Shown: positions 38,001 to 59,982, counted from the first letter of the stretch. The stretch: 64,000 bases of DNA from Anaeromyxobacter sp. (GCA_049840735.1 JASGJN010000021.1:1-64000); one strand, 5' to 3'. The notes: a model not told the origin generated them from the letters alone. Numbers and translations are program-made.

Positions 38001-38099
38001 CCCGTGCCGGTCATCGGTGCGCAGGTCCGCGACGACGCCGCCCAGTTCCTCTTCGACCTGACCTACCCGCCGTCCGACGTCACGCTGTCGGCGCCGTGA
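35071..38099 (+). CDS. Surface lipoprotein lipase/phospholipase (VolA/Pla-1-like alpha/beta hydrolase); 1-nt deletion near 35268
   Basis: LLAAGC lipobox, IPVPND, LDGFSTT, VVFHHGI, RDAIRQ, nucleophile elbow GMSLG, DPADPLNY, DPVVPN and SHG. Confidence 0.8.
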
Positions 38100-38119
38100 G
38101 ACCACGAGAGGTGCACACC

Positions 38120-40546: not shown

Positions 40547-40598
40547 GTGAGCCTCCCCGGCAAGATGCACACCCGGGGGACCGCGCGCCGTGCCCGGC

Positions 40599-41646
40599 TC
40601 AGGCGGGGACCGCGTCCGTGCGGGTCACGCCCGGCAACGAGAGCACCAGGTCCGCGCCGTAGGCCGCGGCCGGCGTCTGCCAGCCCGGGCGCACCTGCCC
40701 GCCCAGGACGCGCGCCGCGATCTCCCGCGACCGCCAGCGCCGTGAGGGTGTAGCCGTCCGGCCCCAGCAGCCGGGCCTCCACCCGGCGCCCATCCCCGGC
40801 CACCGCCTCGCCCGCAATCCGCGACCGGCTGGCCGCCCGCGTGGCCGCGTCCGGCCCGCCCGTGCCGCCCGCCAGCGCCCGCGCCGCCGCCTCCTGCACC
40901 GCCGGGTGACGGAAGGTGAAGGCCGCCCCCATGGCCAGCCCCGCCAGCAGCTGCCGGTGGAGCGGCTGGGCGGTGTAGACCGTCACGTCCTGCACGCCCG
41001 TGGTGTGGCGGGCCGTGTAGACGTCGCCCCAGGGGATGGAGAGCGCGCGCACCGGGCCGTCGCCGAAGTCGATGCGGCGGGTGGCCGGGCCGCTCCCCTT
41101 CGGCACCTGCAGGCCGGAGATGGGCGTGGTCATGGTGCGCGCCGTGCCGATGGAGAGGTGGCCCAGCCCCTGGAACGCCAGCACCAGCCGGACCGCGTCG
41201 GGGAGCTTCTGCGCCAGGTGCGCCGCCAGGCAGTCCGTCGGGACCACGTCGAAGCCCGCGCCCGGCAGGAGCATCACGCCGGCGCGCTCGGCGTGGGCGC
41301 CCATCTTCGAGACCCCCTGGAAGACCGGGATCTCGCCGGTGATGTCCAGGTAGTGCACCCGCGTGTCCAGGCAGGCCTCCGCCATCGGCTGCCAGGTGGT
41401 GTGGAACGGCCCGGCGCAGTGGACCACCGCGCTCACGTCCTCGATGGCCCGCCGGAGCGCCACCGCGTCCAGCAGCGGGAAGGCGCGCCAGGGGCAGCCC
41501 AGCTCCGCCGCCAGCCGCGCCAGCCGCTCCGAGTCGCGGCCGCCCAGGATGACCGGGAGGCCGCGCCGGATGGCCTCGCGGGCGATGAGGGTGCCGGTGT
41601 AGCCGTAGGCGCCGTAGACCAGGAGTGGACGTGGGGTCGGGTCCAT
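40599..41646 (-). CDS. Saccharopine dehydrogenase-like / trans-acting enoyl reductase family; extra G near 40725
   Basis: YGAYGYTG, HCAGPF, HYLDITGE, GFDVVPTD and GYTLTA, then after correction PGWQTPA. Confidence 0.88.
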
Positions 41647-41753
41647 GTGGCGGGAAAGCTAGCAGATCGGCGACGCGGTGGGCCGGAGGAGCGCGGGCCG
41701 TGTCCCGCGGGCCACGACGGCGCGTCCGCCCGCGGAACCAGGGCGCTTTCTGC

Positions 41754-41769
41754 TGGCATCGGGCTGGCA
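41754..41769 (+). promoter_or_regulatory. Candidate sigma-54 promoter for the discoidin-vanW pair
   Basis: TGGCAT-CGGGC-TGGCA with GG-N10-GC spacing, 13 nt before ATG 41782. Confidence 0.35.
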
Positions 41770-41781
41770 AAGGCGGGGAAC

Positions 41782-43104
41782 ATGCCTGCCATGACCCTGC
41801 TCCCGGCGCTGCTCCTGGTCGTCACCGCAGCTTCACCCGAGGCGCCTCTCCGGCTCGAAGCCCTGGCTTCGACGTCCGGCGCCGGGGTGGAGCGGATCCT
41901 CGACGGCGATCCGACGACCACATGGTCGCCGGAGGGCGATCCCAGGGACGAGGGGATCCTGCTCCGGTTCGGGGAGACGGTGAAGGCCGACGGGGTGGAG
42001 GTGGTCACCTGCGCCGGCGCCTCGAGGTTCACGGCCTTCGCCGACGGCTTCGAGCTCGGCCTCTACGAGTACCAGGAGAAGAAGGGCGCGCACGCCGCGA
42101 TCTGGGCCGAGATGGGCCCGGACGAGTTCGACGAGCTCCGCTCGCTCTTCCTGCGCGTGGACTCCGGCACCGGCTGCATCGCCGAGCTCAGCTTCCTGAA
42201 GGACGGCAAGCCCCTGCCGGTGTCGCCGCCGCGCCAGGTCGCGGGCCGGCTCACCGCCACCTCGACCCTCCCGCCCGCCCCCGCCTACCATGCCAGCTAC
42301 CTCTTCGACGGCCGGCTCGACTTCGGCTGGGTCGAGGGAGCCGCCGGCAGCGGGGCCGGTGAGGGCGTGACCATCGAGCTGGAGAAGCCGGTGACGCTCA
42401 CCGGCCTCGAGGTCTGGAACGGCTACCAGCGCTCCGAGGCCCACTTCACGCGCAACGCCCGCGCGCGCGGCGTCACGGTGAGCCTCGATGGCCGCCCGCC
42501 CATCCCGCTCGAGCTCCGCGACGAGCAGGGGAGCCGAATCCACCTCCTCCCCGCCGGTCCGCCGGCCAAGCGGATCACCCTGCGGGTGACGTCCGCCTAC
42601 CCTGGCCTCAAGTACCCGGACCTCGTGCTCTCGGAGCTCCGGCTCTGGGACGCCGAGGGGGCGCTGCGCGTCGCCACCTCCGACCGCGAGGCCATGAAGC
42701 GGGCGCTGCTCGAGCAGGCGAAGCCCACGATCCTGGCCGCGTTCATGGACCGCAAGCTCCAGGCCTGGGAGACCCCCAAGCTCCCCGCCCAGAGCCTCAA
42801 GCTCCGCTCCGACCACACCTTCGTCGCCTACCAGTCCTGCTCTTCCCGCGCCCGCTGCCTCCGCGAGGCGATGGACGGCACCTGGGTGCTCTCCGGCTCG
42901 GACGCGGGCAGCGCCGAGATCGAGCTCTTCGCCCGCGCCCACCGCACCGACGAGAACACCGACCCCTACGCGCCCGGCGGGGCCTACCAGCGCGAGTCCA
43001 CCCGCATCGCCGGCGGCAAGCTGCGCATCACCGTGCCCGCTCCCGGCTCGGTCAAGGTCAGCGGCAAGCTCCTCGACCGCGAGCTGAAGGTCGCCGACAG
43101 GTGA
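41782..43104 (+). CDS. Exported protein with two discoidin/galactose-binding-like beta-sandwich domains
   Basis: Signal peptide, ILDGDPTTTW, LFDGRLDFGWVEG...GEGVTI, WNGYQRS and YPG...SELRL. Confidence 0.7.
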   Translation: MPAMTLLPALLLVVTAASPEAPLRLEALASTSGAGVERILDGDPTTTWSPEGDPRDEGILLRFGETVKADGVEVVTCAGASRFTAFADGFELGLYEYQEKKGAHAAIWAEMGPDEFDELRSLFLRVDSGTGCIAELSFLKDGKPLPVSPPRQVAGRLTATSTLPPAPAYHASYLFDGRLDFGWVEGAAGSGAGEGVTIELEKPVTLTGLEVWNGYQRSEAHFTRNARARGVTVSLDGRPPIPLELRDEQGSRIHLLPAGPPAKRITLRVTSAYPGLKYPDLVLSELRLWDAEGALRVATSDREAMKRALLEQAKPTILAAFMDRKLQAWETPKLPAQSLKLRSDHTFVAYQSCSSRARCLREAMDGTWVLSGSDAGSAEIELFARAHRTDENTDPYAPGGAYQRESTRIAGGKLRITVPAPGSVKVSGKLLDRELKVADR

Positions 43105-43907
43105 CCGCCTCGGTCCGCCACGCCGCCCGCGCGCTCCTCCCGCTCGGCCTGCGGGTGGCCCTGCGGCGCGCGCCGGCCCTGCTGCGCAGCGCGTTCCAGC
43201 CGGCCCTCCCGCTGCTGCCGCCGGGCGGCCGAGCCACCTTCGGACACGTCCAGGCCCAGCGCGCCACCCCGCTGCGCCGCGCCGGCACGATGTACGGCGA
43301 GGCGCTCCAGCGCGGCAAGGAGCAGAACGTGGCCCGCGCCGCGGCGCTGCTCGACGGGCTGGTGATCGGGCCTTTCGAGACCTTCTCCTGGCACCGGACC
43401 GTGGGCGCGCCGCTCCGGCTGCGCGGCTTTGCCCCTGGCCCGGAGGTGCGCGGCGGGGAGGTGGTGGCCGGGGTCGGCGGCGGCGCCTGCCAGGTGGCCA
43501 ACCTGGTCTGCTGGCTCGGGCTCCACGCCGGGCTGGAGCTGGTCGAGCGGCACGGCCACGACGTCGACCTCTTCCCCGACCACGAGCGGACCGCGCCCTT
43601 CGGCTCCGGCGCCACCGTGTTCTTCCCCACCCGCGACCTGCGCCTGCTGAACCCCGGACCCTCCCCGCTGCTGCTCACGCTGGAGGTCCGCGACGGCTGG
43701 CTGCACGGCGCGGCGCGGCTCACCCGCGACCCCGGGCTGCGCTGGGAGCTGCAGGAGCGCGAGCACCACTTCGTGCGCGAGCCGGACGGCGTCTATCGCC
43801 AGAACCGGCTCTGGATCCGGACGCTGCGCGGGGACGAGCTGGTCGCGGAGGCCGAGGTGGCCGCCAACCGGGCGCGGGTCCTCTACGCGGTGCCCGGGCT
43901 GGGCTGA
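43101..43907 (+). CDS. VanW family protein
   Basis: IGPFETFSW, VGGGACQVAN, ERHGH and GATVFFPTRDLRL. GTGA overlap with the upstream gene. Confidence 0.85.
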   Translation: MTASVRHAARALLPLGLRVALRRAPALLRSAFQPALPLLPPGGRATFGHVQAQRATPLRRAGTMYGEALQRGKEQNVARAAALLDGLVIGPFETFSWHRTVGAPLRLRGFAPGPEVRGGEVVAGVGGGACQVANLVCWLGLHAGLELVERHGHDVDLFPDHERTAPFGSGATVFFPTRDLRLLNPGPSPLLLTLEVRDGWLHGAARLTRDPGLRWELQEREHHFVREPDGVYRQNRLWIRTLRGDELVAEAEVAANRARVLYAVPGLG

Positions 43908-45387
43908 TCAGCGCCCGTGGTTCCGCGCCAGCGAGCGCGGCCGCACCTGCGACGGGTTCCGCCAGTCGCCGAGCCGCGCCAGCAGGTCCTCGTCGCCGTC
44001 CGCCCGCGCGCGCTCCAGGAGGCCCTCCCACACGTCCTCGCGGACGTAGGCGTAGTCCGGCGAGAGCGCAACCACCGGCGCGTCCGCGCGCTGGGGCGCC
44101 AGCGCGGTCCACTCGCCCGGCCGGATCCCCCAGGCGATCCGGCCCACCTCGCGCCGGTCCAGCTCCGGCTCCGGTGCCCAGCTCATGGCGTCGCGCCCGG
44201 TCTCCGTGGTCGTAGAGGAAGGCCAGCCCCTGCTGCGCGATGAGCAGCGCGGGGAGCGGCCGCGGCAGCTCCGTCAACAGCTCGCGGTAGAGCCCCCAGG
44301 GCGGCTGGCGCACCGCGCCGATCCCACCCCTCGCGCCCGGCCAGGCCAGGGCCAATCCCAGCGCCACCAGCAGCGCGGGCACCGCGCGCAGCAGGCGCGG
44401 CCAGGGCAGCGGCGCCGGCCAGGCCAGCACCAGCAGCGGCGCCGCCAGCGCCGGGGCGGCCAGCGCCAGCCTGTAGCCGAGGTCCAGCAGATCGTCGCGC
44501 CAGGGGATGGCCAGGCAGGCGGCCAGCGGCAGCGCGAGGGCCGCCAGCGCCGGGCGCGCCGCAGGGCGCCGGAGCCAGGCCAGGGCCGCCAGCGGCAGCG
44601 CCGCCCACCCCGCCCAGAGCTCGCCGGCCTGCCCGGCAGGGATCGGCCGCAGCTTCAGGTAGCCCGCCGGCGACGGCCAGCCTGGCGAGAGGCGCAGCTG
44701 CCCGCCCAGCCGCTCCAGGTCGGCCGGGTGGAGCAGGTTGGGCAGCGCCCAGCTGGCCAGGGCAAAGGCCAGCGCCGCCACCAGGCCGGCCGCCAGCACC
44801 CCCGCCGCCGCGCCCATGCCGCGACGCGCCGTGACCAGCCCCAGCCCGCCGCCGATCGCCGCCAGCGCCAGCAGCGCCGCGCCGAGCCGGTGGGCGGTGG
44901 CCGCCAGCAGCAGCGCCACGGCCAGCACCGCCGCGCGACCCAGGCCGGGCCGCGCCCGGACCAGCCCCATCGCCAGCAGGGCCGGGGCCACCACCCCGAG
45001 CTGCTTGGGGAACTCCGCCGCGAGCTGCCCCAGCGTGGGCGAGGCCGCCGCCCAGGCCGCCAGCGCCAGCGCACCCTCCTCCCGCCCCGCCAGCCGCGCC
45101 CCGGCCGCCGCCGCCGCGGGCACCGCCAGCGCCGCCAGCAGCGCCGAGCCCAGCTTCACGCCCAGCTCCGGATCCCGCGCCGCCCAGGCCGCCGCCGCGA
45201 GGAAGCGGAGCACCCAGCTCGCGTCCGGCGCGTGCAGCCGGCCGGTGGCCAGCAGCCGCTCGGCCTGGACCACGTAATAGTAGCCGTCGGTCCCCAGCGG
45301 CCCCGGGCTGGCCAGCAGCGCCAGCAGCCGCGCCGCCACCGCCGCCGCGGCCAGCGCGGCCACGGCCCACCAGGCCCGGCGGCTCAC
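43908..45387 (-). CDS. Polytopic membrane protein, GT-C/ArnT-like fold suspected; extra G near 44205
   Basis: First-loop motif LGTDGYYYVVQ, about 10 hydrophobic segments, and a soluble tail after frame correction (YDHETGRDAMSWAPE). Confidence 0.6.
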
Positions 45388-45989
45388 CGCGCCGGCGCCG
45401 GGCAGAGCGGCGCCTCCTCGATGGGCCAGCGGCCGCTCCCGGCGGCGTGGAAGTGCCACCACTCGGTCCGGATGCCGCCGAACCCCGCCGCCTCCATGGC
45501 CTCCCGCAGGAGCTTGCGGTTGGCCGCCGCCTCCGGGCTGGCCGGGGCGTCGGGCGCGGCGGCTGGGGTGAAGTCGTCGAAGGGGGTAGGCATGACCACC
45601 GGCGCGCCGCTGGCGTCGACCAGGGTCAGGTCCACCGCGCCCCCGCGGTTGTGGACCGAACCCCTGGCCGGATCCGCCACGTACCGTGCGTCCGGGACCC
45701 GCCGCCACATCTCGCGCTGCACCGCCGGCGGGCGATAGCAGTCCCACACCAGGAGGCCGTACCCGCGCTGCTCCAGCCAGGCCTGGGCCCGGGCCAGCGC
45801 CTCCGCCGCGGGGCGGCGCAGCAGGCAGCGCGCGCAGGGGTAGACCGCGGCGTGGAGGAAGTTGTCCGGGGTGGCGTAGCGCAGGTCCAGCCGGACGCCC
45901 GGGGCGACCGTGGTCACGTCCACCAGCTGGGGGACGGCGGCCGGACCCCCGGTCGACAGCAGGGCGAGCAGCAGGGCGGGGGCGAGCAT
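45384..45989 (-). CDS. ddpX: D-alanyl-D-alanine dipeptidase (M15D, VanX/DdpX family) with signal peptide
   Basis: LDLRYATPDNF, WDCYRP, SVHNRGGAVDLTL (SxHxxGxAxD) and EWWH. Confidence 0.9.
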   Translation of the reverse strand: MLAPALLLALLSTGGPAAVPQLVDVTTVAPGVRLDLRYATPDNFLHAAVYPCARCLLRRPAAEALARAQAWLEQRGYGLLVWDCYRPPAVQREMWRRVPDARYVADPARGSVHNRGGAVDLTLVDASGAPVVMPTPFDDFTPAAAPDAPASPEAAANRKLLREAMEAAGFGGIRTEWWHFHAAGSGRWPIEEAPLCPAPAR

Positions 45990-46095
45990 CGGGCCATTGT
46001 AGCGATTGTTTGCCCCGGGCAGAGAACGGGACTTCCTCCTGTTTGTGGATAGGATCCCCCCAGGATCGACCCGCCGGCCCAGCCCCTGCTCGATC

Positions 46096-47469
46096 ATGCG
46101 CCTCCTGCTGCACACCACCCCCGCCGTGCTCGACGGCGACCTCGACCACCCGCGGCCCTTCGGCCTCGTCGCCGAGCTGGTGGCGGCCGACGCCGCGGAG
46201 GGCGCGCTGGTGATCGAGGCCGCCAGCTGGGACGAGGCGGTGTCCGCCGGCGCCGCCGTCCGCGCCGCGCCGCACCTCTCTCGCCTGCCGCTCTTCCTGG
46301 CCGAGCGCCCCGCCGGCGACGAGCCCGCCGTGGCCGGCCAGCTGTTCGACGGCCTGCACCTGGGCGACCTCCGCGCCCGGGCCGCGCCCATCCTCAGCGA
46401 GGGGTCCCGCTTCGCCCACCGCGCCAACGCGCCGGGCGAGGCGCTGGCGCAGTACCTGGCCTGCCGCCCCCAGGCGCGCCTCCACCCGATCCGCGACTGG
46501 CGCGCCCCCGGCTACTACCGCTACCCGGTGGTGGACGCGCTCTTGGGCGCCTCGGAGAACGTCTTCACCTGGCTCGACCGCTGGGCGGCGCGCCACGTGC
46601 TCGACCTGGACATCGTGGTGGACCGGCTGCGGCTCTGCGACGCCTGCAGCTCGGCCCACCTCAGCTACCTCGACGTCTGCCCGTCCTGCGCCAGCCTCGA
46701 CATCGTCCACACCCGCCTGCTGCACTGCTTCACCTGCGCCCACGTGGGTCCGCGCGAGGCGTTCGTGCAGGGCGACCACCTGAGCTGCCCCAAGTGCGAG
46801 GCCGTGCTGCGCCACATCGGCGTGGACTACGACCGGCCCATCGAGCAGCAGCAGTGCCGGCACTGCAAGCACCTCTTCGTGGACGCCGACGTGCGCAGCG
46901 CCTGCATGGCCTGCCAGGCCACCAGCAGCCCCGAGCACCTGCCCTCGCGCGCCATCGGCCTCTACCGCCTGGGCGGCGCCGGCCTGCTGCTGGCCCGCCA
47001 GGGCAACCTGTCCCCGGTCCTCTCCGGCCTGGACATGGTCAACTACATCGGCCCGGCGCTGTTCGAGCGGCTCATCGACTGGCAGGTCGCCCTGGCGCGG
47101 CGCTACCCGGAGAGCCACTTCTTCAGCGTCATCGGCCTGCGGGTGGCCAACCTCTCGCGCCTGGTGGAGACCCTGGGGCGCTCCGGCACCGCCGCGCTGG
47201 TGGACAGCTTCGCCGAGCGGCTGCGGGCCATGCTGCGCGTCTGCGACGTGACCACCCGCAGCGACGAGCACCTCTGGCTGCTGGCGCCCCACACCGATGC
47301 CAAGGGCGCCGGCTGCCTGATCGGGCGCATCGAGAAGCTCACCGAGGCCACCCGCCAGCCCAGCGGGCTCAAGCTGGAGCTGGGCTCGACGGTGGGCTCC
47401 ATCCCGGGCGAGGACGTGCCCACCGAGGGCAGCCAGCTGATGGGCGTGCTGGCCTCGCGGCTGGAGTGA
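46096..47469 (+). CDS. Multi-Zn-ribbon (TackOD1-like) protein with a degenerate GGDEF domain
   Basis: Six CxxC pairs (CDAC, CPSC, CFTC, CPKC, CRHC, CMAC) and LRHIGVDYDRP. The C-terminal GGDEF-like fold keeps RxxD (RVCD) but has SDEHL in place of GGDEF. Confidence 0.8.
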   Translation: MRLLLHTTPAVLDGDLDHPRPFGLVAELVAADAAEGALVIEAASWDEAVSAGAAVRAAPHLSRLPLFLAERPAGDEPAVAGQLFDGLHLGDLRARAAPILSEGSRFAHRANAPGEALAQYLACRPQARLHPIRDWRAPGYYRYPVVDALLGASENVFTWLDRWAARHVLDLDIVVDRLRLCDACSSAHLSYLDVCPSCASLDIVHTRLLHCFTCAHVGPREAFVQGDHLSCPKCEAVLRHIGVDYDRPIEQQQCRHCKHLFVDADVRSACMACQATSSPEHLPSRAIGLYRLGGAGLLLARQGNLSPVLSGLDMVNYIGPALFERLIDWQVALARRYPESHFFSVIGLRVANLSRLVETLGRSGTAALVDSFAERLRAMLRVCDVTTRSDEHLWLLAPHTDAKGAGCLIGRIEKLTEATRQPSGLKLELGSTVGSIPGEDVPTEGSQLMGVLASRLE

Positions 47470-47473
47470 GCCC

Positions 47474-48754
47474 GTGCCGACCGCGCTCGACGCCACCACG
47501 CTGGTGCTCAAGTTCTTCCCGCTGGTGCTGCTCTTCGAGCTGCCGGTCTACCTGATCATCTGGCTGGGCGCGCTGCTGTGGGCCCGGGATCGGCGCCGCA
47601 CCCCGCCCGCGGACGACTACCTGCCCTCGGTGAGCTGCCTCGTCACCTGCTACGCCGAGGGCAAGGACGTCGGGATCACCATCCGGACGCTGCTCGAGCA
47701 GCTCTACCCCGGGCTCATCGAGATCATCGTGGTGGTGGACGGCGCGGTGCAGAACCGGGCCACCTACCAGGCCGCCCGCGACTGGCAGGCCGAGGCGCGC
47801 AGCTACCCCATGCGCGTGCTCAAGGTCCTGCCCAAGCGGACCCGCGGCGGCCGCGTGTCCAGCCTCAACGCGGCCCGCCTCTTCGCCCGGGGCGAGATCA
47901 TCCTCACCCTCGACGGCGACACCTCCTTCGACAACGACATGGTCTGGCAGGTGACGCGCCCCTTCGCCGATCCCGGCGTGGGCGCCGCCTCCGGCGCGCT
48001 GCGGCTGCGCAACGCCAAGGCCAGCCTGCCGGCACGGCTGCAGGCGCTGGAGTACATGCTCTCCATCCAGCTGGCCCGGACCGGGCTCTCGGCGCTGGGG
48101 ATCGTCAACTGCATCTCCGGCGCGTTCGGCGCCTTCCACCGCGACCTGGTGGACCGGCTGGACGGATGGGACGCCGGCACGGCCGAGGACCTGGACATCG
48201 TCCTGCGCATCAAGAAGCGGGCCGGTGGCGCCCGGAGCCAGATCGTCCACACGCCCCTGGCCATGGGCCACACCGACGGCCCCACCACGTGGAAGGGCTT
48301 CTTCAAGCAGCGGCTGCGCTGGGACGGTGACCTCTACTATCTCTACGTCCGCAAGCACGGCCGCAGCCTCAAGCCCAGCCTGCTGGGCTGGCGCAACTAC
48401 GTGATGCTGCTCTGGACCGGCATCTACTTCCAGCTGATCATGCCCTTCGTGATCGTGGCCTCCACGATCTGGATGCTCCTGAGCGCCTCGGCCGCCTCGC
48501 TGCTGCTGGTGCTGGGGCTGGTGCTGGCCTTCTACACGCTCGCCACCCTGGGCCTGTTCCTCACCTACCTCTGGCTCCTCTCCGAGCGGCGCGCCCACGA
48601 CTGGCCCTACCTGCGCTTCATCCCGCTCTTCCCCCTCTTCGCCTTCGCCACCCGCGTCTGGAACGGCTTCGCCACGCTGGCCGAGCTCGTCACCCGGCAG
48701 CACCTCGACTCCTCCATGGCGCCGTGGTGGGTGCTCAGGAAGACCCGCTTCTGA
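47474..48754 (+). CDS. Processive membrane GT2 polysaccharide synthase
   Basis: VVVDG, DxD (LDGDT), ISGAFGAF, TAED and QxxRW (QRLRW). One N-terminal and about three C-terminal TM segments. Confidence 0.9.
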   Translation: MPTALDATTLVLKFFPLVLLFELPVYLIIWLGALLWARDRRRTPPADDYLPSVSCLVTCYAEGKDVGITIRTLLEQLYPGLIEIIVVVDGAVQNRATYQAARDWQAEARSYPMRVLKVLPKRTRGGRVSSLNAARLFARGEIILTLDGDTSFDNDMVWQVTRPFADPGVGAASGALRLRNAKASLPARLQALEYMLSIQLARTGLSALGIVNCISGAFGAFHRDLVDRLDGWDAGTAEDLDIVLRIKKRAGGARSQIVHTPLAMGHTDGPTTWKGFFKQRLRWDGDLYYLYVRKHGRSLKPSLLGWRNYVMLLWTGIYFQLIMPFVIVASTIWMLLSASAASLLLVLGLVLAFYTLATLGLFLTYLWLLSERRAHDWPYLRFIPLFPLFAFATRVWNGFATLAELVTRQHLDSSMAPWWVLRKTRF

Positions 48755-50886
48755 TGGCCCGCCCGATCTCCCTCGCGCGGACCGCGCTCCTCGCCCTCGC
48801 GGCCCCGGCCCTGGCCGCGGCCGCGCCGCTCGGCCTGCCCGAGCTGGAGGCGGCGCTGGACGGGCGCGACGAGGTCCGGGCGGCCTCGGCCGACCTGGCG
48901 CTGGCCGACGCCCAGGCCGCGCGCGCGCAGGGCGACGGCGGCCTGCGGGCCACCACCAGCGCGGTGGTGGGGGCGCTCTCCGAGCCGCAGTGGCCGCTCG
49001 GCACCAGCCGCGACTACGGCTCGCTGGGGCTGGCGCTGGGGCTGCGCTACCCGCTGCTGGGCTCGGCCGCCGAGGAGCGGCTGGCGGTGGCCACCGCGCG
49101 GCTGGACGCGCTCACCGCCCAGGCCCGCCGCGACGCGGCCCGGCTGCGGCTGCGGCGCGAGCTGCGCGAGAGCTTCTTCGGCTACGCCCAGGCCCAGGCC
49201 CACCTCGCGCTGGCCGAGGCCTTCCTGGCCGACGCCCCGCGCATCCGCGCGGTGCTCCGCCGCCGGCAGGCGGCCGGGCTGGTGCTGGAGAGCGACCGCC
49301 GCCAGATGGAGCTGGCCTTCGCCCGCGCCGAGCGCGCGCGAGACGGGGCCGCGGCGGAGCTGGCGCAGCGGCGCGAGGAGCTGCGCCGCTGGTCGGCGGC
49401 CTTCGACGGCCAGGTGACGCTCCCGCCTCCAGCCGCGCTGCGCGGGGGCGGGGAGGCGCTGGCCCAGGAGCTGGGCTCGCGCCGCGCCGCCGCCCGCACC
49501 GCGCCGCTGGCCGAGCTGGAGGCGCCCGGGACCTCGCTGCTGGCCGGCGCGCGGGGCAACGTCTTCGTGACCGGGACGCTCCGCCACGACACCGACCTGG
49601 GCAACGGGGGCAGCGTGGTGGCGGGCCTGTCGCTGGACTGGCCGCTCTCCCGCGCCAGCGGCGCCGGGCTGGCCGGCGAGCACCAGGCCCGGGTCGAGCA
49701 GGCGCGGCTGGCGGTGGAGCGGCTCCAGGCGGACGAGCAGCGGCTGGCGGTCCAGGCCCTGGGCGAGGCCGAGCAGGCCGCCGCCGAGCTGCGGCTGGCC
49801 CGCGCGCGGGTGGCCAGCGCCGCCGCCGCCGCGGCCGAGGCGGCGCAGCGGGCCCGGCTCTCCGGCGGCGCCGACGGCGCGCCCATCGAGCGCTGGGTGC
49901 GGGCGCGGGCCGCGCTCCACGACGAGCTGCTCGCGCTGCAGCAGGCGGAGGGGCGCCAGGCGCTGGCCGCCGCGCAGGTGGCGCTGGCCTTCGACGGCAG
50001 CGGCATCGCCCCGCTGGTCCCGACCCAGCCGCCGCCCTGCGCCGCCCCGGCGCTGGCGCTGCTGGCCTGGCGCACGCTGGAGGCGCAGCCGCCGCCCGCG
50101 CCGGCCTGCGCCGAGCCGACCGCTGCGCCCGCGCCGGCCGGCCGCGCCTTCTACGCCTGGGACGGCCCGCGCGCCCTGGAGCGCGCCGGGGACGACGCCT
50201 TCTGGCGGACCACCCGCGCCGGGACCCTCTGGCTCTCCTTCGGCGCCGACGCGCTGGCGCGGCTCCAGGAGCCGGCCGCGCGCGAGGCGCTGCGGTCGGG
50301 CCTGCTGCGCCTGCACGAGCGCGGCGTGGGCGTGGCGCTGCTGCTGGGTGAGCCCAGCTGGCTGCGGCCCGGGCAGGAGCAGGCGCTCTTCGCCCTGGTC
50401 CGGTCGCTGGCCGACCTGCCCTTCGACGCCATCCACCTCGACGTGGAGCCGGTGCAGCTCCAGCCGCCGCTCCCCGGCGACCAGGCCTGGACCGCCCTGG
50501 CGCGCCTGGCGCGCGAGACCCGCGCCATCGCCGGGCGCCCGGTGCTGCTCAGCCTGAACTGGCGCGACCTCTCGCCCGCGCCGGGCGCGCCCTGCCCGGC
50601 CTGCGCCGCCGCCGCGGCCGCCGACGAGGTGGTGGTGATGCTGTACGCCACCTCGCCGGAGCTGGTGGAGCAGCGGATGCGCGCGCTGCTGGCGCGCCGC
50701 CCCGCTCCGCGGCTCTGGCTGGCCCAGAGCATCGAGCCGGCGCTGGGGCCGGAGGAGAGCTTCGCCGGCCAGGGGCGAGGTGCGCTGGCGGCGCAGCAGG
50801 ACCGGCTCTCGGGCCTGTCCGCCGATCCCACCTTCGCCGGGTTCGCCGTCCAGAGCCTGGAGGACTTCCTCGAGGCCCGCCCATGA
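48754..50886 (+). CDS. TolC-like outer-membrane factor fused to a GH18-like TIM-barrel domain
   Basis: Signal peptide and two OMF-like repeats (GLALGLRYPL and VAGLSLDWPL) with long Ala/Arg/Glu helices. A Pro linker leads to a domain with LLLGEPSW, FDAIHLDVEP, VVVMLY and AQSIE. Confidence 0.7.
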   Translation: MARPISLARTALLALAAPALAAAAPLGLPELEAALDGRDEVRAASADLALADAQAARAQGDGGLRATTSAVVGALSEPQWPLGTSRDYGSLGLALGLRYPLLGSAAEERLAVATARLDALTAQARRDAARLRLRRELRESFFGYAQAQAHLALAEAFLADAPRIRAVLRRRQAAGLVLESDRRQMELAFARAERARDGAAAELAQRREELRRWSAAFDGQVTLPPPAALRGGGEALAQELGSRRAAARTAPLAELEAPGTSLLAGARGNVFVTGTLRHDTDLGNGGSVVAGLSLDWPLSRASGAGLAGEHQARVEQARLAVERLQADEQRLAVQALGEAEQAAAELRLARARVASAAAAAAEAAQRARLSGGADGAPIERWVRARAALHDELLALQQAEGRQALAAAQVALAFDGSGIAPLVPTQPPPCAAPALALLAWRTLEAQPPPAPACAEPTAAPAPAGRAFYAWDGPRALERAGDDAFWRTTRAGTLWLSFGADALARLQEPAAREALRSGLLRLHERGVGVALLLGEPSWLRPGQEQALFALVRSLADLPFDAIHLDVEPVQLQPPLPGDQAWTALARLARETRAIAGRPVLLSLNWRDLSPAPGAPCPACAAAAAADEVVVMLYATSPELVEQRMRALLARRPAPRLWLAQSIEPALGPEESFAGQGRGALAAQQDRLSGLSADPTFAGFAVQSLEDFLEARP

Positions 50887-51902
50887 AGATCCGCTTCAGC
50901 GTCCCCGAGGCCACCGACCCCCGCCGCGAGGGGGGCATGCAGCTGCCGCCGCAGCAGGGGAAGCGCACCTCGGCGCGCTGGCGCTGGCTGCTGGTGGTGC
51001 TCCTGGCGCTCAGCCCGGGCCTGCTGGTGGGCGGCTACCTGCTGCGCGGCTGGCTCTGGGTGGACGCGGGCGGCTTCGTCTTCTTCGAGGAGCTGCCGGT
51101 GACGGCGCCCGGCCCGGGCACGGTGGTGGCGGTCCAGGCGGCGGCCGGGAAGCCGGTCGAGCCGGGCGCACCGCTGGTGGAGCTGCAGAACCCGGAGCTG
51201 GCCGCCGAGGCCGCGGCGCTGCAGGCCGCCACGCGCCACGCCGGGCGCAGCAGCCCGGAGCTCGCCGCGCTCGACCGGCAGGTGGCGGCGCTGCGCGCGG
51301 CGCGCCAGGCCCGGCAGGACGAGCTGTCCAGCCTGCGCGCGCTGCAGGCGGCGGGCGCGGCCACGAGGGGCGAGGTGCTGGCCGCGCGCGAGCGGGCCGG
51401 CGCGGCCGAGGCGGCGCTGGCGGCGGCGGAGCGCGACCGGGCCAGCGCGCTGGCGCTGCTCGACGCCAGCGGCCAGACCACGGCCGACCAGGCCAGCCGG
51501 CTGGCGGTGCTGACGGCCCGCCTGGAGGCGCTGAAGGTCGCGGCGCCGGCGGCCGGCCTGGTGGACTCCGTGGTGGTGCAGCGCGGCCAGCGGGTGGCCG
51601 CCGGCGAGCCGCTGCTGGTGCTGCGCCGGGGCGAGCCGCAGGTGGTCGGCTTCCTGCCCGGGCGCGAGCTGGCGCTCAGCACAGGCGACGAGGTCCGGCT
51701 GGTGCTGCCGGACGGCACCACCCTGCGCGGCCGTGTCATCGGCCAGGCGCCCTCGACGCTCCGGCTGCCCGAGGAGCTGTCCAGCTCCTTCGAGCCGCGC
51801 ACCGCCCGGCTGCAGGTGCTGATCGCGCCGGAGGGGCTGCCGCCGCAGGCGCGGGTGCACCGCCTGCCGGTGACGGTCCGGCTGTTCCGGTTCAGGTGGT
51901 GA
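50883..51902 (+). CDS. HlyD-family membrane fusion protein
   Basis: One N-terminal TM. Lipoyl halves VTAPGPGTV...GKPVEPGAPLVEL and APAAGLV...GQRVAAGEPL flank a coiled coil. Confidence 0.88.
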   Translation: MKIRFSVPEATDPRREGGMQLPPQQGKRTSARWRWLLVVLLALSPGLLVGGYLLRGWLWVDAGGFVFFEELPVTAPGPGTVVAVQAAAGKPVEPGAPLVELQNPELAAEAAALQAATRHAGRSSPELAALDRQVAALRAARQARQDELSSLRALQAAGAATRGEVLAARERAGAAEAALAAAERDRASALALLDASGQTTADQASRLAVLTARLEALKVAAPAAGLVDSVVVQRGQRVAAGEPLLVLRRGEPQVVGFLPGRELALSTGDEVRLVLPDGTTLRGRVIGQAPSTLRLPEELSSSFEPRTARLQVLIAPEGLPPQARVHRLPVTVRLFRFRW

Positions 51903-51908
51903 GCGCGG

Positions 51909-52580
51909 CTACCGCGGCAGCGGCGTGAAGGCCGGCCGGCGGGGCGAGGCCAGGTAGGCGGCGATCCGCTCCCGCGCGGCGATGCGGGCGGCGAAGGCCA
52001 CCAGCGCCGGGTGCCGGTCCACCGCGGCCTCGAAGCCGTTGTCGCGCAGCGACTCCAGCAGGTACCAGAGCGCCAGGTCGGCCACCGTCAGCCCGGCGCC
52101 GACGGCGAACCCCTGGCCGCCGCGGTTGGCCCGGAGCAGCCGGTCGAGCGCCGCCGTCCAGCGCGGCAGCGTCTGCTCCACCAGCCCGGCGCGCACCGCC
52201 GCGCGCGCCTCGGGCGCGGCGGTGGCGAGCTTGCGCAGCTCCGTCCGCACGTCCTCGATGGCCCCCAGCCACTCGTCGCAGCGCGCCTCCTCCAGCGCGT
52301 CCTGCCCGCGCAGGCCGTGCCGGCGGGCCAGGTAGTTGGCGATGGCGGCGCTCTGCGCCAGGCGCAGCCCGTCCGGCTCCTCCCAGACCGGCACCGCGCC
52401 GAAGGGGAGCGAGCCGGCCGCGGCCAGCTCCGCCAGGTCGGTCGGGCGCCCGCCCACCGGCGGCGTGCCGCGGCCCACCGGGTGCTCCGCGTGATCCAGC
52501 CCGATCTCGGCCAGCAGCAGGCGGATCACCTCGGCGCGCCCGCGGGCCGGGAAGTAGAGCAGGGTCGGCTTCGAGGTCAT
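51909..52580 (-). CDS. Glutathione S-transferase
   Basis: LYFPARGRAEVIRLLL, PFGAVPV, QSAAIANYL and LTVADL. Confidence 0.92.
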   Translation of the reverse strand: MTSKPTLLYFPARGRAEVIRLLLAEIGLDHAEHPVGRGTPPVGGRPTDLAELAAAGSLPFGAVPVWEEPDGLRLAQSAAIANYLARRHGLRGQDALEEARCDEWLGAIEDVRTELRKLATAAPEARAAVRAGLVEQTLPRWTAALDRLLRANRGGQGFAVGAGLTVADLALWYLLESLRDNGFEAAVDRHPALVAFAARIAARERIAAYLASPRRPAFTPLPR

Positions 52581-52729
52581 GGCGCCAGTCTACCGCCGGC
52601 GGCCCGGGCCGCCAGCGACACCGCGCCCCTTCCGCCGGGGCCGACGGCGCGTGTGCTGATATTCCCCGGCACGCGCGCCGCGCGTTCACGCTATCCTCTC
52701 GTGCCCCGGACACGCGGAGAGTCGAGCAC

Positions 52730-53638
<909 letters not shown>

Positions 53639-53754
53639 CGCCGCGCCCCGGAAGGTCCGCCGCGCAGGCGCCGGAGCCCACCTCCGGCTGAGGCCGCACG
53701 CCGCACGCCGCCTTTTGACCCCAGGATGTGGTTAGATCGCACTGGGAGTCCCAT

Positions 53755-56037
53755 ATGACCATTGCCGGGGCCGCGCTGGCGGCCAACGCGGTCGAGTTCG
53801 AGCTCACCGTGGGTCCGCACGCGGCCGACGACCTGCTGGTGGTGGCGTTCGAGGCCGAGGAGCGGCTCAGCGCGCCCTACGCGGTGGACGTGACCGTGGC
53901 CATCCGCGAGGGAACCGAGGTGGACGCGGCCGCGCTGGTGGCCGAGCCCGGCTGCCTCACCGTCCAGCTCGGCGACGGGAGCACGCGCTGCTTCGACGGC
54001 ATCGTCTCGGCCGTGCGCCGCTGGGACGAGGGGCCCGCCCAGCTGGAGCGGCGGCTGAGGGTGACGCTGGTGCCCAGCCTCTGGCGCCTCGGCTGCGTCT
54101 TCCGCAGCCGCATCTTCCAGGACCTGACCGTGCCGGAGATCGTGGAGCAGGTGCTCTCCGACGCCGGCATCACCGACCTCGAGCAGGCGCTCTCCGGCGA
54201 CTACGCGAAGCGCGGCTACACGGTGCAGCACCAGGAGACCGACCTCGACTTCGTGCAGCGCCTGCTGGAGGCGGAGGGCATCTTCTACTTCTTCAAGCAC
54301 GCCCAGGGGTCCCACACGCTGGTGCTGGGCGACGCGCCCTCCGTGCACGAGCCCATCGAGGGCGGCGAGGCCTCGCTCCCGTTCCACGCGCAGAGCGGGA
54401 TGACCGGCGGTGAGCAGGTGGACGAGCTGGCCGCGTCGGCGGAGGTGCTGCCGGGCAAGGTCACGCTGCGCGACTTCGACTGGCAGCGCCCCACCACCGA
54501 CCTGACGCAGGCCCGCGACGACGGCGGCGCCGACGCGGCGCTGGAGGTCTACGAGTACCCCGGCGGCTACGTCCAGGGGCGCGACGGCGCCGCGCTGGCC
54601 CGCATCCGGCTGGAGGAGCTCCGCGCCCGCGCCCAGCGCTTCAGCGGCGCCACCAACTGCCGGCGGCTCCTGCCGGGCCGCACCTTCGAGCTGACCGGCC
54701 ACCCGCTGGGCGAGCTGGACGGCGAGTACCTGATCCTCTCCGTGGCCCACCACGGCGACCAGTCCGAGCTGCTCTCCGCGCTGCACCGGCCGGACCGCCG
54801 CGCCGGGGAGCGGCGGGACCCGTTCCGCGCCCGCTTCGAGCTGCAGCGCAAGGACGTGCCCTTCCGCCCGGAGCGCCGCACGCCGCGGCCGCGGGCGCCG
54901 GGCGCGGAGACCGCCATCGTGGTCGGCCCCGCCGGCGAGGAGATCCACACCGACGAGCACGGCCGGGTCAAGGTGCAGTTCCACTGGGACCGCGAGGGCC
55001 AGCGCGACGACCACTCCAGCTGCTGGATCCGCGTGGCCCAGGCCTGGGCCGGCGCGGGCTGGGGCGCGCTCTACCTGCCGCGCATCGGCCAGGAGGTGGT
55101 GGTCGAGTTCCTGGGCGGCGACCCCGACCGGCCCATCGTGACCGGCAGCGTCTACAACGGCGCCAACCCGCCGCCGGTCCAGCTCCCCGGCGAGAAGACG
55201 CGCAGCACCCTGCGCTCCTTCACCAGCCCGGGCGGCGACGGCTTCAACGAGCTGGCCTTCGAGGACGCCGCCGGCCGCGAGCAGGTCTACTTCCACGCCC
55301 AGCGCGACGTCGAGGCGGTGGTGGAGCACGACCGCAGCGAGACCATCGGCGCCAACGACACGCTCACCGTCACCGGGGACCAGTCCGCCACGGTGGGGAA
55401 GAGCCGCGCGGTGAAGGTGACCGAGGACGACCGGCGCACCGTGGGCGGCAGCTCCTTCCTGGAGGTGGGGAAGGACCGGACCCTCACCGTGGGCGGCTCG
55501 CACACCGAGACCGTGGCCGGCCAGCAGGCGGTGAGCGTGGGGGGCGTCCAGAGCGTGACGGTGGCGATGGCCGCCGCGGAGACGGTCGGCCTGGGCAAGG
55601 CCCTCACCGTCGGCGGCGCCTACGCGGTCACGGTGGGCGGCCTCATGAACGAGCTGGTGGGCGGCCTCAAGGCGGAGGAGGTGGGCGGCGCCAAGGTGGA
55701 GGTGGTGGGGGCCAAGAAGACCGAGACCGTGATGAGCTCGCGCACGGTGGCGGTGGGCGGCGAGTCGTCCGAGACGGTCGGGAAGGCCCGCAGCGTGAAG
55801 ATCGGCGGGGACCTGCTCGTCTCCATCGGCGGGAAGCTCACCCAGGCCGTCAAGGCCAAGCACGAGCTGAACGCGAAGGAGATCGTGCTCTCGGCCGACG
55901 ACAAGCTCACCCTCAAGGTCGGCTCGGCCACCATCGAGCTCAAGAAGAGCGGCGACGTGGTGATCAAGGGGGCCAAGGTGGACGTGAAGGCCTCCGGCGC
56001 CATCGTCCTCAAGGCCGCCACCATCTCCGAGAACTGA
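53755..56037 (+). CDS. vgrG: Type VI secretion spike protein VgrG (copy 1)
   Basis: SRIFQD, QHQETDLDF, DEHGRVKVQFHWDR, SCWIRVAQAWAG, PRIGQEVVV and GFNELAFED, then gp5-type beta-helix repeats. Confidence 0.95.
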   Translation: MTIAGAALAANAVEFELTVGPHAADDLLVVAFEAEERLSAPYAVDVTVAIREGTEVDAAALVAEPGCLTVQLGDGSTRCFDGIVSAVRRWDEGPAQLERRLRVTLVPSLWRLGCVFRSRIFQDLTVPEIVEQVLSDAGITDLEQALSGDYAKRGYTVQHQETDLDFVQRLLEAEGIFYFFKHAQGSHTLVLGDAPSVHEPIEGGEASLPFHAQSGMTGGEQVDELAASAEVLPGKVTLRDFDWQRPTTDLTQARDDGGADAALEVYEYPGGYVQGRDGAALARIRLEELRARAQRFSGATNCRRLLPGRTFELTGHPLGELDGEYLILSVAHHGDQSELLSALHRPDRRAGERRDPFRARFELQRKDVPFRPERRTPRPRAPGAETAIVVGPAGEEIHTDEHGRVKVQFHWDREGQRDDHSSCWIRVAQAWAGAGWGALYLPRIGQEVVVEFLGGDPDRPIVTGSVYNGANPPPVQLPGEKTRSTLRSFTSPGGDGFNELAFEDAAGREQVYFHAQRDVEAVVEHDRSETIGANDTLTVTGDQSATVGKSRAVKVTEDDRRTVGGSSFLEVGKDRTLTVGGSHTETVAGQQAVSVGGVQSVTVAMAAAETVGLGKALTVGGAYAVTVGGLMNELVGGLKAEEVGGAKVEVVGAKKTETVMSSRTVAVGGESSETVGKARSVKIGGDLLVSIGGKLTQAVKAKHELNAKEIVLSADDKLTLKVGSATIELKKSGDVVIKGAKVDVKASGAIVLKAATISEN

Positions 56038-56039
56038 CC

Positions 56040-58554
56040 ATGGCCCGCGGCGAGCGCATCGCGTACGAGCTGGAGACCGGCGGCTTCGCCGAGGGCCAGC
56101 TGGTGGTCTGGGCCCTGCACGGCCGCGAGGCCCTCAACGAGCCCTTCGCCTTCTCGGTCCGCATCGGGACCCCCGACGGCGACCCGCTGGACCTGGCCGC
56201 CCTCCTGGGCGGCGAGGCGACGCTCACGCTGCGCCGCCCGGACGGCTCGGAGCGGGTGGTGCACGGCGAGGTCGGGCGGGCGCGGCTGGCCGGCGTGGCC
56301 GCCGGCGTGCCCACCTACGAGCTGCAGCTGGTCCCGCGGCTGGCCCGGCTGGCCCACGCCGCCTCCAGCCGCATCTTCCAGGACGTCACCGTGCCGGACC
56401 TGGTGGCCGAGGTCCTGGACGCGCACGGCGTGAAGCACCGCGCCGCGCTGGGGAGCTACCCGCAGCGCGAGTACGTGGTGCAGCACCAGGAGACGGACCT
56501 GGCCTTCGTCTCGCGCCTGCTCGAGGAGGAGGGGATCGGCTTCTGCTTCGAGCACGAGGCCGGCGCCCACACCCTGGTGCTCTTCGACGCCGCCGACGCC
56601 GGCCCCTCGCTGGACGAGGTCCTGCCCCTCCGGCAGGAGGAGCAGGGCGACGGCGACGTCTTCGCCGACCGGCTCGCCGCCGGCGCGGCGCTCCAGCCGC
56701 AGGCGGCGGCCTTGCGGGACTTCGACTTCCAGCGGCCGGCGCTGACGCTGGAGGCGAGGTCCGGCTCGGGCGCGCTGGAGCGGTACGAGTACCCCGCCGG
56801 CATCGCGACCGTCGGCGAGGGGCGCGCCCGCGCCGGCGTCCGGCTGGCCCAGTCGCGGGTCCGCGCCGCCACCTGGGAGGGCGTCACCACCGCCCTGGGG
56901 CTCTCGCCGGGCACGCGCTTCGAGGTGGACGGCACGCCCAGGCTGCGCTGCGTCTCGGTGGTGCACGAGGGGCAGCAGGAGCGCCGCCCCGGCGGCGAGC
57001 TGCTGGCCACCTACCGCAACGCCTTCCGCGCCCTGTCCGGCGACGAGCCCTGGCGGCCGCCGCGCCGGACCCCGCGGCCCCGCGCCCACGGCCTGGAGAC
57101 GGCCCTGGTCACCGGCCCCGGCGGCGAGGAGATCAACGTCGACGCCCACGGCCGGGTGAAGGTGCAGTTCCACTGGGATCGCCAGGGGCAGCGGGACGAC
57201 CGGTCCAGCTGCTGGGTGCGGGTGGCGCAGGCCTGGGCCGGCGCCGGCATGGGCGCCAGCGTGGTGCCGCGCATCGGCCAGGAGGTGCTGATCCGCTTCC
57301 TGGCCGGGGACGCCGACCGGCCGCTGCTGGTGGGCGCCGTCTACGACGGCCAGAACCGGACCCCGGTCTCGCTCCCGGACGACCGGACCCGCAGCACCCA
57401 CCGCTCCGCCTCCAGCCTGGGCAGCGACGGCTTCAACGAGCTCTCCTTCCAGGACCAGGCCGGCGCGGAGCGCGTCTACCTGCACGCCCAGCGCGACCTG
57501 GTCGCCGAGGTGGGCAACGACCGGACCGCCCAGGTGCGCGGCGACGAGGCGGTGGCCATCGGCGGCGACCTGGACCAGACCATCCTGGGCCGGCGCACGC
57601 GCGCGGTGGGCGAGGACCAGGCCAGCGTGGTGGGCGGCGGGGAGACCACGCTGATCGCCGCCGCCCGGGGCGAGACCGTGGGCGGGGACGACACGCAGGG
57701 CGTGGGCCAGGCCCGGAGCCTCACCGTGGGCGGCGCCCGGACGGTGGGCGTGGCCGCGGCCTCGGCCGAGACGGTCGGGGCCGCCGGCGCGCTCACGGTG
57801 GGCGGCGCCTACGCCATCTCCGTCGGGCTCGCCTCCAACGTGGCGGTGGGCGGCGCGCTGCTGCAGCAGGTGGTCGGCGCCAAGACCGTGGTGGTGAACA
57901 AGAGCCAGGAGGAGCGGGTGGGCAAGGACCGCTCCCTCAGGATCATGGGCGAGGACCGGCTCGAGATTCGGGAAGGGCTCCAGCGTCACCGTGGGGAAGG
58001 ACGGCCGCGACGAGGTCGGCAAGCGGCTGGTGGTGGACGTGAAGGAGGGGAGCATGGGGCTGGCCCAGTCCTTCCTGCTCAAGGCGGACACCGTCACGCT
58101 CAAGGTGGGCGGGCGGCCGCTGCTCAACGCCAAGAGCTCCGGCGCGGTGACCTGGGCGGTCTCCTCCCTCACCATCGACGCCAGCGGGAAGCTCACGATC
58201 AAGGGCGCCTCTGTCTCCAAGAAGTCCGGCGAGGGCGGCTCGGGCGCGGCCCGGACGCAGAAGAAGGTGACGGCCAAGGGGAGCGTCAGCGTCCGCGTCC
58301 CCATGAGCCCGGAGCAGGCCGGCCAGAGCCCGCTGGCCTTCGTCCTCGAGTCCACCGACGGCGCCTTCAAGCAGAAGAAGTCGCTCAAGGGGGACAAGGT
58401 GGACGGGGACGGCGGCGTGCAGCTCCCGTTCAAGGACGTGCCGGACGACAAGACCTTCCGGCTCAAGCTGGTGGCGCCGGGCGGGCAGGAGGTGCTGCTC
58501 GCCGACGGCGTGCCGTACCTCCAGCTGTCGGCCGCCCTGAGCGGCCAGGGCTGA
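56040..58554 (+). CDS. vgrG: VgrG (copy 2) with a ~110-aa C-terminal extension; 1-nt insertion near 57967
   Basis: Same VgrG motifs as copy 1. Correcting GAGATTCG to GAGATCG joins it to ORF 57991-58554, continuing the beta-repeats (EIGKGSSVTVGKDG...). Confidence 0.9.
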
Positions 58555-58576
58555 ACCCGGTCCCGTGGAGCCCGCC

Positions 58577-59185: not shown

Positions 59186-59191
59186 GCGGCC

Positions 59192-59974: not shown

Positions 59975-59982
59975 GGGTCCCC

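Follow-up and report, generated by a model that had tools for sequence, protein, structure and literature searches.

A probable relative of the mxd biofilm operon in Anaeromyxobacter that encodes a TolC-like protein fused to a GH18-like barrel

The four genes and their products

The stretch of DNA considered here (the window) comprises 64,000 nucleotides of Anaeromyxobacter sp. (GCA_049840735.1 JASGJN010000021.1:1-64000), and between positions 46,096 and 51,902 it carries four genes of a putative exopolysaccharide system controlled by cyclic di-GMP (c-di-GMP). They encode a regulator, a family 2 glycosyltransferase (GT2), a TolC-like outer membrane factor (OMF) fused to a hydrolase-like barrel, and a HlyD-like adaptor of the membrane fusion protein (MFP) class. 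An earlier note, made from the sequence, had described them as tightly coupled, and the lengths, the open frames on the plus strand and the junctions read in the sequence agree with it: genes 1 and 2 are separated by a 4-nt gap (GCCC, 47470-47473), genes 2 and 3 overlap in TGATG (48752-48756) and genes 3 and 4 overlap in ATGA (50883-50886), so that there is no space for another gene between any of them. The four are taken to be the true coding frames because their third-position GC is 0.98-0.99, as against 0.64-0.90 in four long competing frames, and a frame artefact was ruled out by this comparison. The third-position GC resembles that of other genes in the window, and the genome holds one close copy of each of the four. 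The features are as follows.

46096..47469, plus strand: gene 1, MxdA-like regulator, 457 amino acids (aa), open frame
46432..46971, plus strand: TackOD1 domain of gene 1, residues 113-292, with CxxC/HxxC motifs (PF18551, E 2.3e-60)
47236..47247, plus strand: RxxD motif R381-V-C-D384 of the c-di-GMP I-site type, from conservation and alignment to cyclase I-site positions
47474..48754, plus strand: gene 2, processive-type GT2 synthase, 426 aa, GTG start
48754..50886, plus strand: gene 3, OMF-barrel fusion, 710 aa
48754..50040, plus strand: TolC/OprM-type OMF domain of gene 3 with a signal peptide-like start (PF02321, E 5e-13, two stretches)
50140..50886, plus strand: GH18-like (beta/alpha)8 barrel fused to the OMF, from an AlphaFold2 (AF2) model, fold matches and invariant residues
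50883..51902, plus strand: gene 4, HlyD/EmrA-type adaptor, 339 aa

Besides TackOD1, a domain whose function has been called obscure (PMC5847659), Pfam finds only a sub-threshold GGDEF domain in gene 1. The Cys and His positions of TackOD1 are invariant in 41/41 sequences, and the nearest relatives of the protein are from Anaeromyxobacteraceae. In the AF2 model (pLDDT 88.7), residues 310-457 match GGDEF structures with a Z of 15.8 and a root-mean-square deviation (rmsd) of 2.6 over 140 residues, and the c-di-GMP system proteins PelD and BcsE are among the fold matches (Z 9.4 and 7.8). An active diguanylate cyclase was ruled out, because the catalytic GG(D/E)EF loop is replaced by RSDEH and the strand that would carry the metal-binding D-x-D reads GLRVAN, without its aspartates. 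The RxxD motif, by comparison, is kept, with R381 present in 46/47 and D384 in 47/47 of the non-redundant relatives, as is R336 (47/47); from the alignment to cyclases and the PleD numbering, R381-x-x-D384 and R336 presumably represent the primary and the secondary I-site. The N-terminus is weakly REC-like, over only 41 columns and with a probability of 46%, and it had no usable match in the protein atlas outside TackOD1 clusters. No GAF domain was matched in gene 1, and one marginal hydrophobic segment was all that was seen by way of a membrane anchor. The earlier note's reading of a Zn-ribbon joined to a degenerate GGDEF domain is thus refined, the ribbon being TackOD1 and the GGDEF domain dead with a conserved RxxD, whereas its comparison with the receptor PelD holds for the likely function only and fails for the architecture, in which neither GAF domain nor anchor was seen.

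Gene 2 encodes a GT2 that Pfam assigns to GT2 families with no PilZ domain, and its motifs D147-G-D149 (47912-47920), T236-A-E-D239 and Q279-R-L-R-W283 (48308-48322) are, together with D89, invariant or nearly so in 41 sequences, in agreement with the processive enzyme that had been recognized from DxD, TED-like and QRLRW motifs. The closest solved relative of its profile is hyaluronan synthase (HAS; E 2e-15), and the hydropathy suggests a single membrane segment at the N-terminus and about three at the C-terminus, a topology like that of PgaC, NodC and HAS. The protein stops ~55 residues past the last strong membrane segment, and no c-di-GMP domain like the PilZ of XcsA or the C-terminal domain of BgsA was seen in it. 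Its best NCBIfam match is PgaC (122 bits, E 2e-35), relatives carry PgaC-type automatic names, and the hydrolase domain of PgaB is among the fold matches of the barrel described below, all of which would fit a divergent poly-N-acetylglucosamine (PNAG, Pga) system, the name under which some databases list the enzyme. The score nevertheless lies below the PgaC cut-off of 422 bits, and PgaA, PgaD and a deacetylase were not among the conserved neighbours of the related loci; on these grounds identity with PgaABCD was rejected, and a divergent form of it is extremely improbable.

The OMF occupies the first ~420 residues of gene 3, where the family profile aligns along residues 44-438 of OprJ (E 4e-5), and a variable linker joins it to the barrel. 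The barrel was modelled with a pLDDT of 94.6 and eight strands. Its top fold match is Cwp19 (Z 18.5, rmsd 3.6, 243 residues aligned), followed by chitinases of glycoside hydrolase family 18 (GH18; Z 17.7, 17.6 and 17.4), a GH5 mannosidase (16.4) and the PgaB hydrolase domain (16.2), and Foldseek also places GH18-fold proteins and Cwp19 at the top. By sequence, the barrel profile matched PDB 10yv, ‘Putative GH97 from Cellulomonas fimi’ (E 9e-7), and then, weakly, chitinases; neither of the fold searches with the barrel model listed 10yv, and no publication on it was among the matches listed. Invariant residues are W469, D563 and E565 (50440-50448), M629, Y631 and E661, of which D563-x-E565 follows strand 4, M629-x-Y631 strand 6 and E661 strand 7, in 45/45 members. 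On the model and the alignment, the (beta/alpha)8 fold, the acid after strand 4 and the M-x-Y after strand 6 agree with GH18. We take D-x-E after strand 4 with M-x-Y after strand 6 to be the GH18 pattern, and a Glu pair on strands 4 and 7 to be that of clan GH-A; because both are present, the chemistry is left between the two. Several points weigh against a plain GH18 assignment: the motif is H-x-D-x-E (36/46) and not the full D-x-D-x-E, Pfam GH18 matched only 6/45 barrel members (best E 4e-4) and not the barrel of the window, and with a second invariant Glu after strand 7 and the GH5 folds close behind, more than one sugar would fit. The barrel is a candidate for a new glycoside hydrolase family. 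It is placed in the periplasm because the stand-alone barrels of six related loci (L052, L058, L073, L084, L086 and L016) begin, by eye, with signal-peptide-like sequences. The earlier description of a TolC-like OMF fused to a hydrolase-like barrel stands, with the barrel now assigned a GH18-like fold. A word-based protein search with the fusion protein, an insensitive method, matched only the protein itself; tblastn and local profiles match many loci. Beyond this type of operon, Bacillota have the barrel joined to a copper-amine-oxidase N-terminal domain, and Cellulomonas has it by itself.

The adaptor, matched by Pfam HlyD_3 (E 1e-9) and hence the HlyD-like MFP that had been proposed, is of the HlyD/EmrA type with one membrane helix (33-56). 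Near its N-terminus the positions M1, K2, F5, P13, G18, K27, R28 and W35 are kept in at least 70% of 55 sequences, and the conserved cytoplasmic tail is a candidate dock for the synthase.

Probable kinship with the mxd operon

The protein of gene 1 aligns with MxdA of Shewanella oneidensis MR-1 at 34% over 328 aa (E 7e-62), and the two share the Pfam architecture of TackOD1 plus a weak GGDEF domain as well as the RxxD. In the published operon, mxdABCD, MxdB is a GT2, MxdC is efflux-like and MxdD is hypothetical, and mutants fail in three-dimensional biofilm formation and aggregation, forming flat biofilms (PMC3691769). The order in the window, in which a GT2 is followed by an efflux-type adaptor, matches the published types and order of MxdB and MxdC, and differs in that the mxd operon, as published, has the hypothetical MxdD and no TolC/hydrolase gene where the window has the TolC-GH18-like fusion. 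Gene 1 and the gene order, with MxdB and MxdC known here by their published gene type, make it very probable that the cassette belongs to the Mxd family. The earlier note had presented the system as undescribed, and this was not upheld: gene 1 is homologous to a component of a biofilm operon that has been studied genetically, and a match to a characterized exopolysaccharide locus, named in the note as an outcome that would count against it, was largely found by way of MxdA. In a quick tree of 71 rows, which is midpoint-rooted and gives neither a donor nor an order of events, MxdA and Vibrionaceae proteins share a group (97% support) with OMF-fusion loci, and gene 1 of the window groups (100%) with proteins of Anaeromyxobacteraceae and Uliginosibacterium. 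Homologues of MxdA were also seen in Aliivibrio fischeri (VF_A0465) and in Vibrio cholerae and Vibrio mimicus.

MxdA is reported to bind c-di-GMP, PdgA and CheY3, and the exopolysaccharide is ‘proposed’ (PMC7666153); the accounts in PMC13713693 and PMC3409153 agree on MxdA. The motif cited for it is NVDEF (PMC13713693). In the alignment, NVDEF (residues 358-362) falls on NLSRL of gene 1, after the first strand and off the catalytic loop, whereas RVTD (residues 387-390) falls on RVCD, and therefore RxxD is likely to be the ligand site of MxdA, rather than NVDEF. New here is this sequence-based reading of MxdA as a Zn-ribbon (TackOD1) followed by a dead GGDEF domain with an RxxD site. MxdA has also been reported to alter c-di-GMP levels indirectly, besides binding PdgA and CheY3 (PMC3691769, PMC7666153, PMC3409153), which would suit a gene 1 that serves as a signalling hub for c-di-GMP, cyclases and CheY and acts on the output indirectly. 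This is very unlikely, given that TackOD1 directly precedes the GT2 also in proteins that join it to a response regulator or have no GGDEF domain, and that a 2026 paper, citing others, has MxdA acting through MxdB (PMC13713693). For a regulator that acts on the synthase itself, a complex prediction of the GT2 with gene 1 and two c-di-GMP scored 0.10 against a mark of 0.32, and weighs neither way.

Conservation and spread of the cassette

A metagenome scan with the GT2 alignment confirmed 382 relatives, the best 80 of which were used as loci; 44 of these have full flanks (1.5 kb upstream and 3.5 kb downstream), the other 36 being dropped for short flanks. TackOD1 lies within reach in 66/67 of the GT2-chosen loci with 1.5 kb upstream. 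All 44 full-flank loci have the adaptor and the barrel, 43 have TackOD1, 40 have the OMF and 38 have the OMF-barrel fusion, and with kin merged the fusion is found in 27/32 groups at 90% identity and in 15/16 at 70%. Two gene orders occur. ABC-motif open reading frames are present in just 3/80 loci, and no inner-membrane pump of the ATP-binding cassette (ABC), resistance-nodulation-division (RND) or major facilitator superfamily (MFS) type was found among the conserved neighbour clusters; with no linked inner-membrane pump, type I secretion and RND and MFS pumps were ruled out at the locus. In the full-flank loci the four genes are thus conserved together and no pump goes with them, a point for which the earlier note had asked a gene-neighbourhood check. 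Every one of the 44 links a GT2 to a HlyD-type adaptor with no ABC or RND pump, the arrangement expected of a synthase-MFP-TolC system.

The loci without the standard fusion are of several kinds. In L023 it is split at a stop and L038 meets a contig end; L052 has barrel and OMF as separate genes and no TackOD1 was found in it; in Methylocystis, too, barrel and TolC are encoded by separate genes. Plesiomonas, Photobacterium, Alisedimentitalea, Phyllobacterium, Palleronia and Roseibium have three-gene forms that lack both OMF and barrel. One replicon of Photobacterium sp. DA100 carries two divergent three-gene copies (L008 and L018).

These counts bear on two other readings. In one, the GT2 makes a polymer, and the adaptor and OMF form a scaffold for the hydrolase or an exporter of proteins or small molecules whose pump is encoded elsewhere. 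The absence of the OMF from several operons would fit, as would the other outer membrane efflux protein genes of the genome (21 matches at about 10 places) and the indirect role of TolC left open for mixed-linkage beta-glucan (MLG; PMC13438883). It is unlikely all the same, as the adaptor adjoins the GT2 in all 44 full-flank loci with no conserved pump, and a glycosidase-like domain is kept on the OMF in 38 of them. In the other, no matrix polymer is made: the product would be a NodC-like short oligosaccharide or glycolipid, which the barrel cuts to length and which leaves via the duct to act as a signal or to modify the surface. In its favour, the GT2 has NodC as its second NCBIfam match (73 bits, cut-off 550) and only about four membrane segments, and more of the full-flank loci keep the barrel than the OMF (44 against 40). 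Acyltransferase and deacetylase genes were not among the conserved neighbours, though, and the mxdB mutants without three-dimensional biofilm or aggregation fit a matrix polymer (PMC3691769); we judge this reading to be quite improbable.

The scattered occurrence of the cassette and its copies on plasmids suggest that it has spread laterally. All 14 plasmid records with a GT2 match at E<=1e-30 sit among the 18 with a TackOD1 match; a 29-kb mobilisable plasmid of Aeromonas caviae carries all four genes in unchanged order, and near-identical proteins occur in Stutzerimonas. One 90% cluster holds both the GT2 (442 aa) and the TolC fusion (694 aa) of A. caviae, perhaps via a chimeric member. Within the host phylum the synthase was found in 3/401 genomes searched, and TackOD1 scored above cut-off in 1/61 relatives; all four genes are present in the genome G370. 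No phage-borne copy was found in the viral contigs searched, and codon GC gives no sign of a recent arrival in the window genome. On a Halorussus plasmid (L013:6950-9911) a short TackOD1 gene, DUF2334 and a related GT2 form one operon, so that, judging by sequence, the link between TackOD1 and GT2 extends to haloarchaea; DUF2334 is presumably deacetylase-like. Haladaptatus salinisoli has TackOD1 with no adjoining GT2. In two alphaproteobacterial loci (L012:7074-8771 and L015:5891-7771) TackOD1 is fused to a response regulator, with no GGDEF domain and with Hpt and kinase genes nearby; there the synthase seems to be switched by a phosphorelay instead of c-di-GMP.

In the window, the operon is neighboured by genes for a D-Ala-D-Ala dipeptidase, a glutathione S-transferase, a REC-GGDEF protein and VanW, and by two VgrG genes; as the earlier note had stated, no ABC pump, Wzx/Wzy, tetratricopeptide repeat (TPR)-porin or deacetylase was found among the neighbours scanned, and there is no Rfam match in 40000-60000. 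The REC-GGDEF protein (52730-53638, plus strand), 830 bases past the operon, has an intact GGEEF and an RxxD and is a possible local source of c-di-GMP. It is not a conserved part, none being found beside the operon in L001 or L002. Further along (53728-58554, plus strand) lie the two tandem VgrG-type genes, the second of which shifts frame near 57800-58000 with its tail in the 57991-58554 frame, and then genes without Pfam matches and a HEAT-repeat gene. On the minus strand, 39520-41646 and 43908-45370 hold frameshifted-looking genes (a short-chain dehydrogenase start, a saccharopine dehydrogenase-like end and a membrane protein near 44185) that hint at indel errors in the assembly. At 35328-39373 (plus strand) a 923-aa protein with a GxSxG-like stretch precedes a FadL-looking porin gene; neither has a Pfam match at 1e-3, and by eye the pair looks like a lipase with fatty-acid uptake.

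Proposed export through TolC: precedents and a model

The earlier note had held that the characterized synthase-dependent systems all use a TPR scaffold and a porin, which overlooked BgsBA-TolC and XcsAB-TolC. In Sinorhizobium meliloti, TolC is required for MLG and a tripartite complex has been proposed (PMC13438883). As in the window, BgsBA comprises a GT2 and a HlyD-type adaptor under c-di-GMP control with TolC as the proposed duct; unlike the window, which encodes a separate sensor protein, it has a synthase, BgsA, for which seven membrane segments are predicted and which itself carries a c-di-GMP domain at its C-terminus. TolC is an unlinked housekeeping gene there, while the OMF of the window is dedicated and fused. 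The cyanobacterial XcsA-XcsB-XcsC/TolC system likewise combines a synthase, a HlyD-like adaptor, a glycoside hydrolase and TolC (PMC8892547, PMC12430437), with the differences that its synthase, XcsA, makes cellulose and has a PilZ domain, that the endoglucanase, XcsC, is a separate protein and that TolC is unlinked. A cellulose system was rejected for the window cassette. Other systems resemble the cassette in part: in the alginate system, Alg44 combines a c-di-GMP sensor with an MFP-like domain, and BcsE of the Bcs system is a degenerate REC-GGDEF receptor (PMC8892547). The Alg8/Alg44, PelD and BcsE systems differ from it in their TPR scaffolds and beta-barrel porins, and have no TolC. TackOD1 is not known from the alginate, Pel and Bcs systems. 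New in the cassette is that the operon encodes a TolC-like protein of its own, joined to a GH18-like barrel that carries invariant acidic residues; no description of this form was found in the literature searched, which was largely without subscription journals or supplements, so that one could exist.

For the polymer, C4-epimerases adjoin 10/93 loci, four on the same strand after the adaptor and six on the other strand. In the six loci scanned they are GalE (L010, L025 and L060) or TviC/GalE-like (L075, L076 and L087), and the GalE copies have a Cys at the gatekeeper position, which presumably admits UDP-N-acetylglucosamine (UDP-GlcNAc). The operon of L084 has an F5/8-type-C gene inserted. 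The epimerases, the GH18-like barrel and the likeness of the synthase to PgaC, NodC and HAS favour galactose or an N-acetylhexosamine; the N-acetylhexosamine, N-acetylgalactosamine (GalNAc) or GlcNAc, is the most likely component, at about an even chance.

By analogy, the best reading is that the cassette works like BgsBA-TolC and XcsAB-TolC. First, the dead GGDEF domain of gene 1 would bind c-di-GMP at RxxD, as expected from MxdA, and turn on the synthase. The TackOD1 Zn-ribbons would probably dock gene 1 on the GT2, because TackOD1 travels with the GT2 even where the GGDEF domain is missing. Second, the GT2, from its motifs, would polymerize a UDP-sugar and move the chain across the inner membrane, with the membrane helix and conserved cytoplasmic tail of the adaptor docking on it. 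Third, the adaptor would join a trimer of the TolC-like protein in an unbroken passage to the outside; where the OMF gene is missing, a housekeeping TolC would be borrowed. Fourth, the tethered periplasmic barrel, from its modelled fold and residues, may clear or trim mis-threaded chain, a role modelled on that thought for BcsZ, AlgL and XcsC. The proposal of the earlier note that the GT2 itself is the inner-membrane pump, threading polymer into an MFP-OMF duct, is retained in this form.

Several points weigh against this reading. Orthology to Mxd is drawn from the sequence of gene 1 and, for the other genes, from the published gene types. The loci are the best 80 of 382 with kin included, and the neighbour profiles were built from those same loci. 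L058, L073 and L084 have a barrel and no OMF within the flank, and L008, L009, L010 and L018 have neither of the two, which makes the OMF dispensable to the operon. No epimerase adjoins the operon of the window itself. As to the precedents, an indirect role of TolC in MLG export is left open by the authors (PMC13438883), and the XcsAB-TolC cellulose model is described as unvalidated (PMC12430437). On balance, we consider it reasonably probable that this four-gene mxd relative makes a likely beta-linked exopolysaccharide at high c-di-GMP and that it likely exports it via its own adaptor-TolC duct. A bolder version can be put forward only tentatively, as possible but on the doubtful side: that the cassette shows the Mxd family in full, with every part it needs in one operon, in which a c-di-GMP-gated synthase threads a novel beta-linked GalNAc/GlcNAc polymer straight through a dedicated TolC with its own proofreading glycosidase of a new family, that TackOD1 is a GT2-activating module of bacteria and some archaea, and that the whole spreads on plasmids as a four-gene plug-in biofilm module.

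With this cassette, the long-studied Mxd system gains a family, a likely c-di-GMP site (RxxD) and a hint at its polymer, and TackOD1 gains a first functional context. Direct export of the chain by a synthase through TolC was an open question in papers of 2025 and 2026 (PMC12430437, PMC13438883), in part because in the cases known so far TolC is encoded apart from the synthase and has pleiotropic effects. Here the OMF is dedicated and lies in the operon, where it could be removed or plugged without side effects, and export through TolC would therefore be directly testable with a 5.8-kb cassette.

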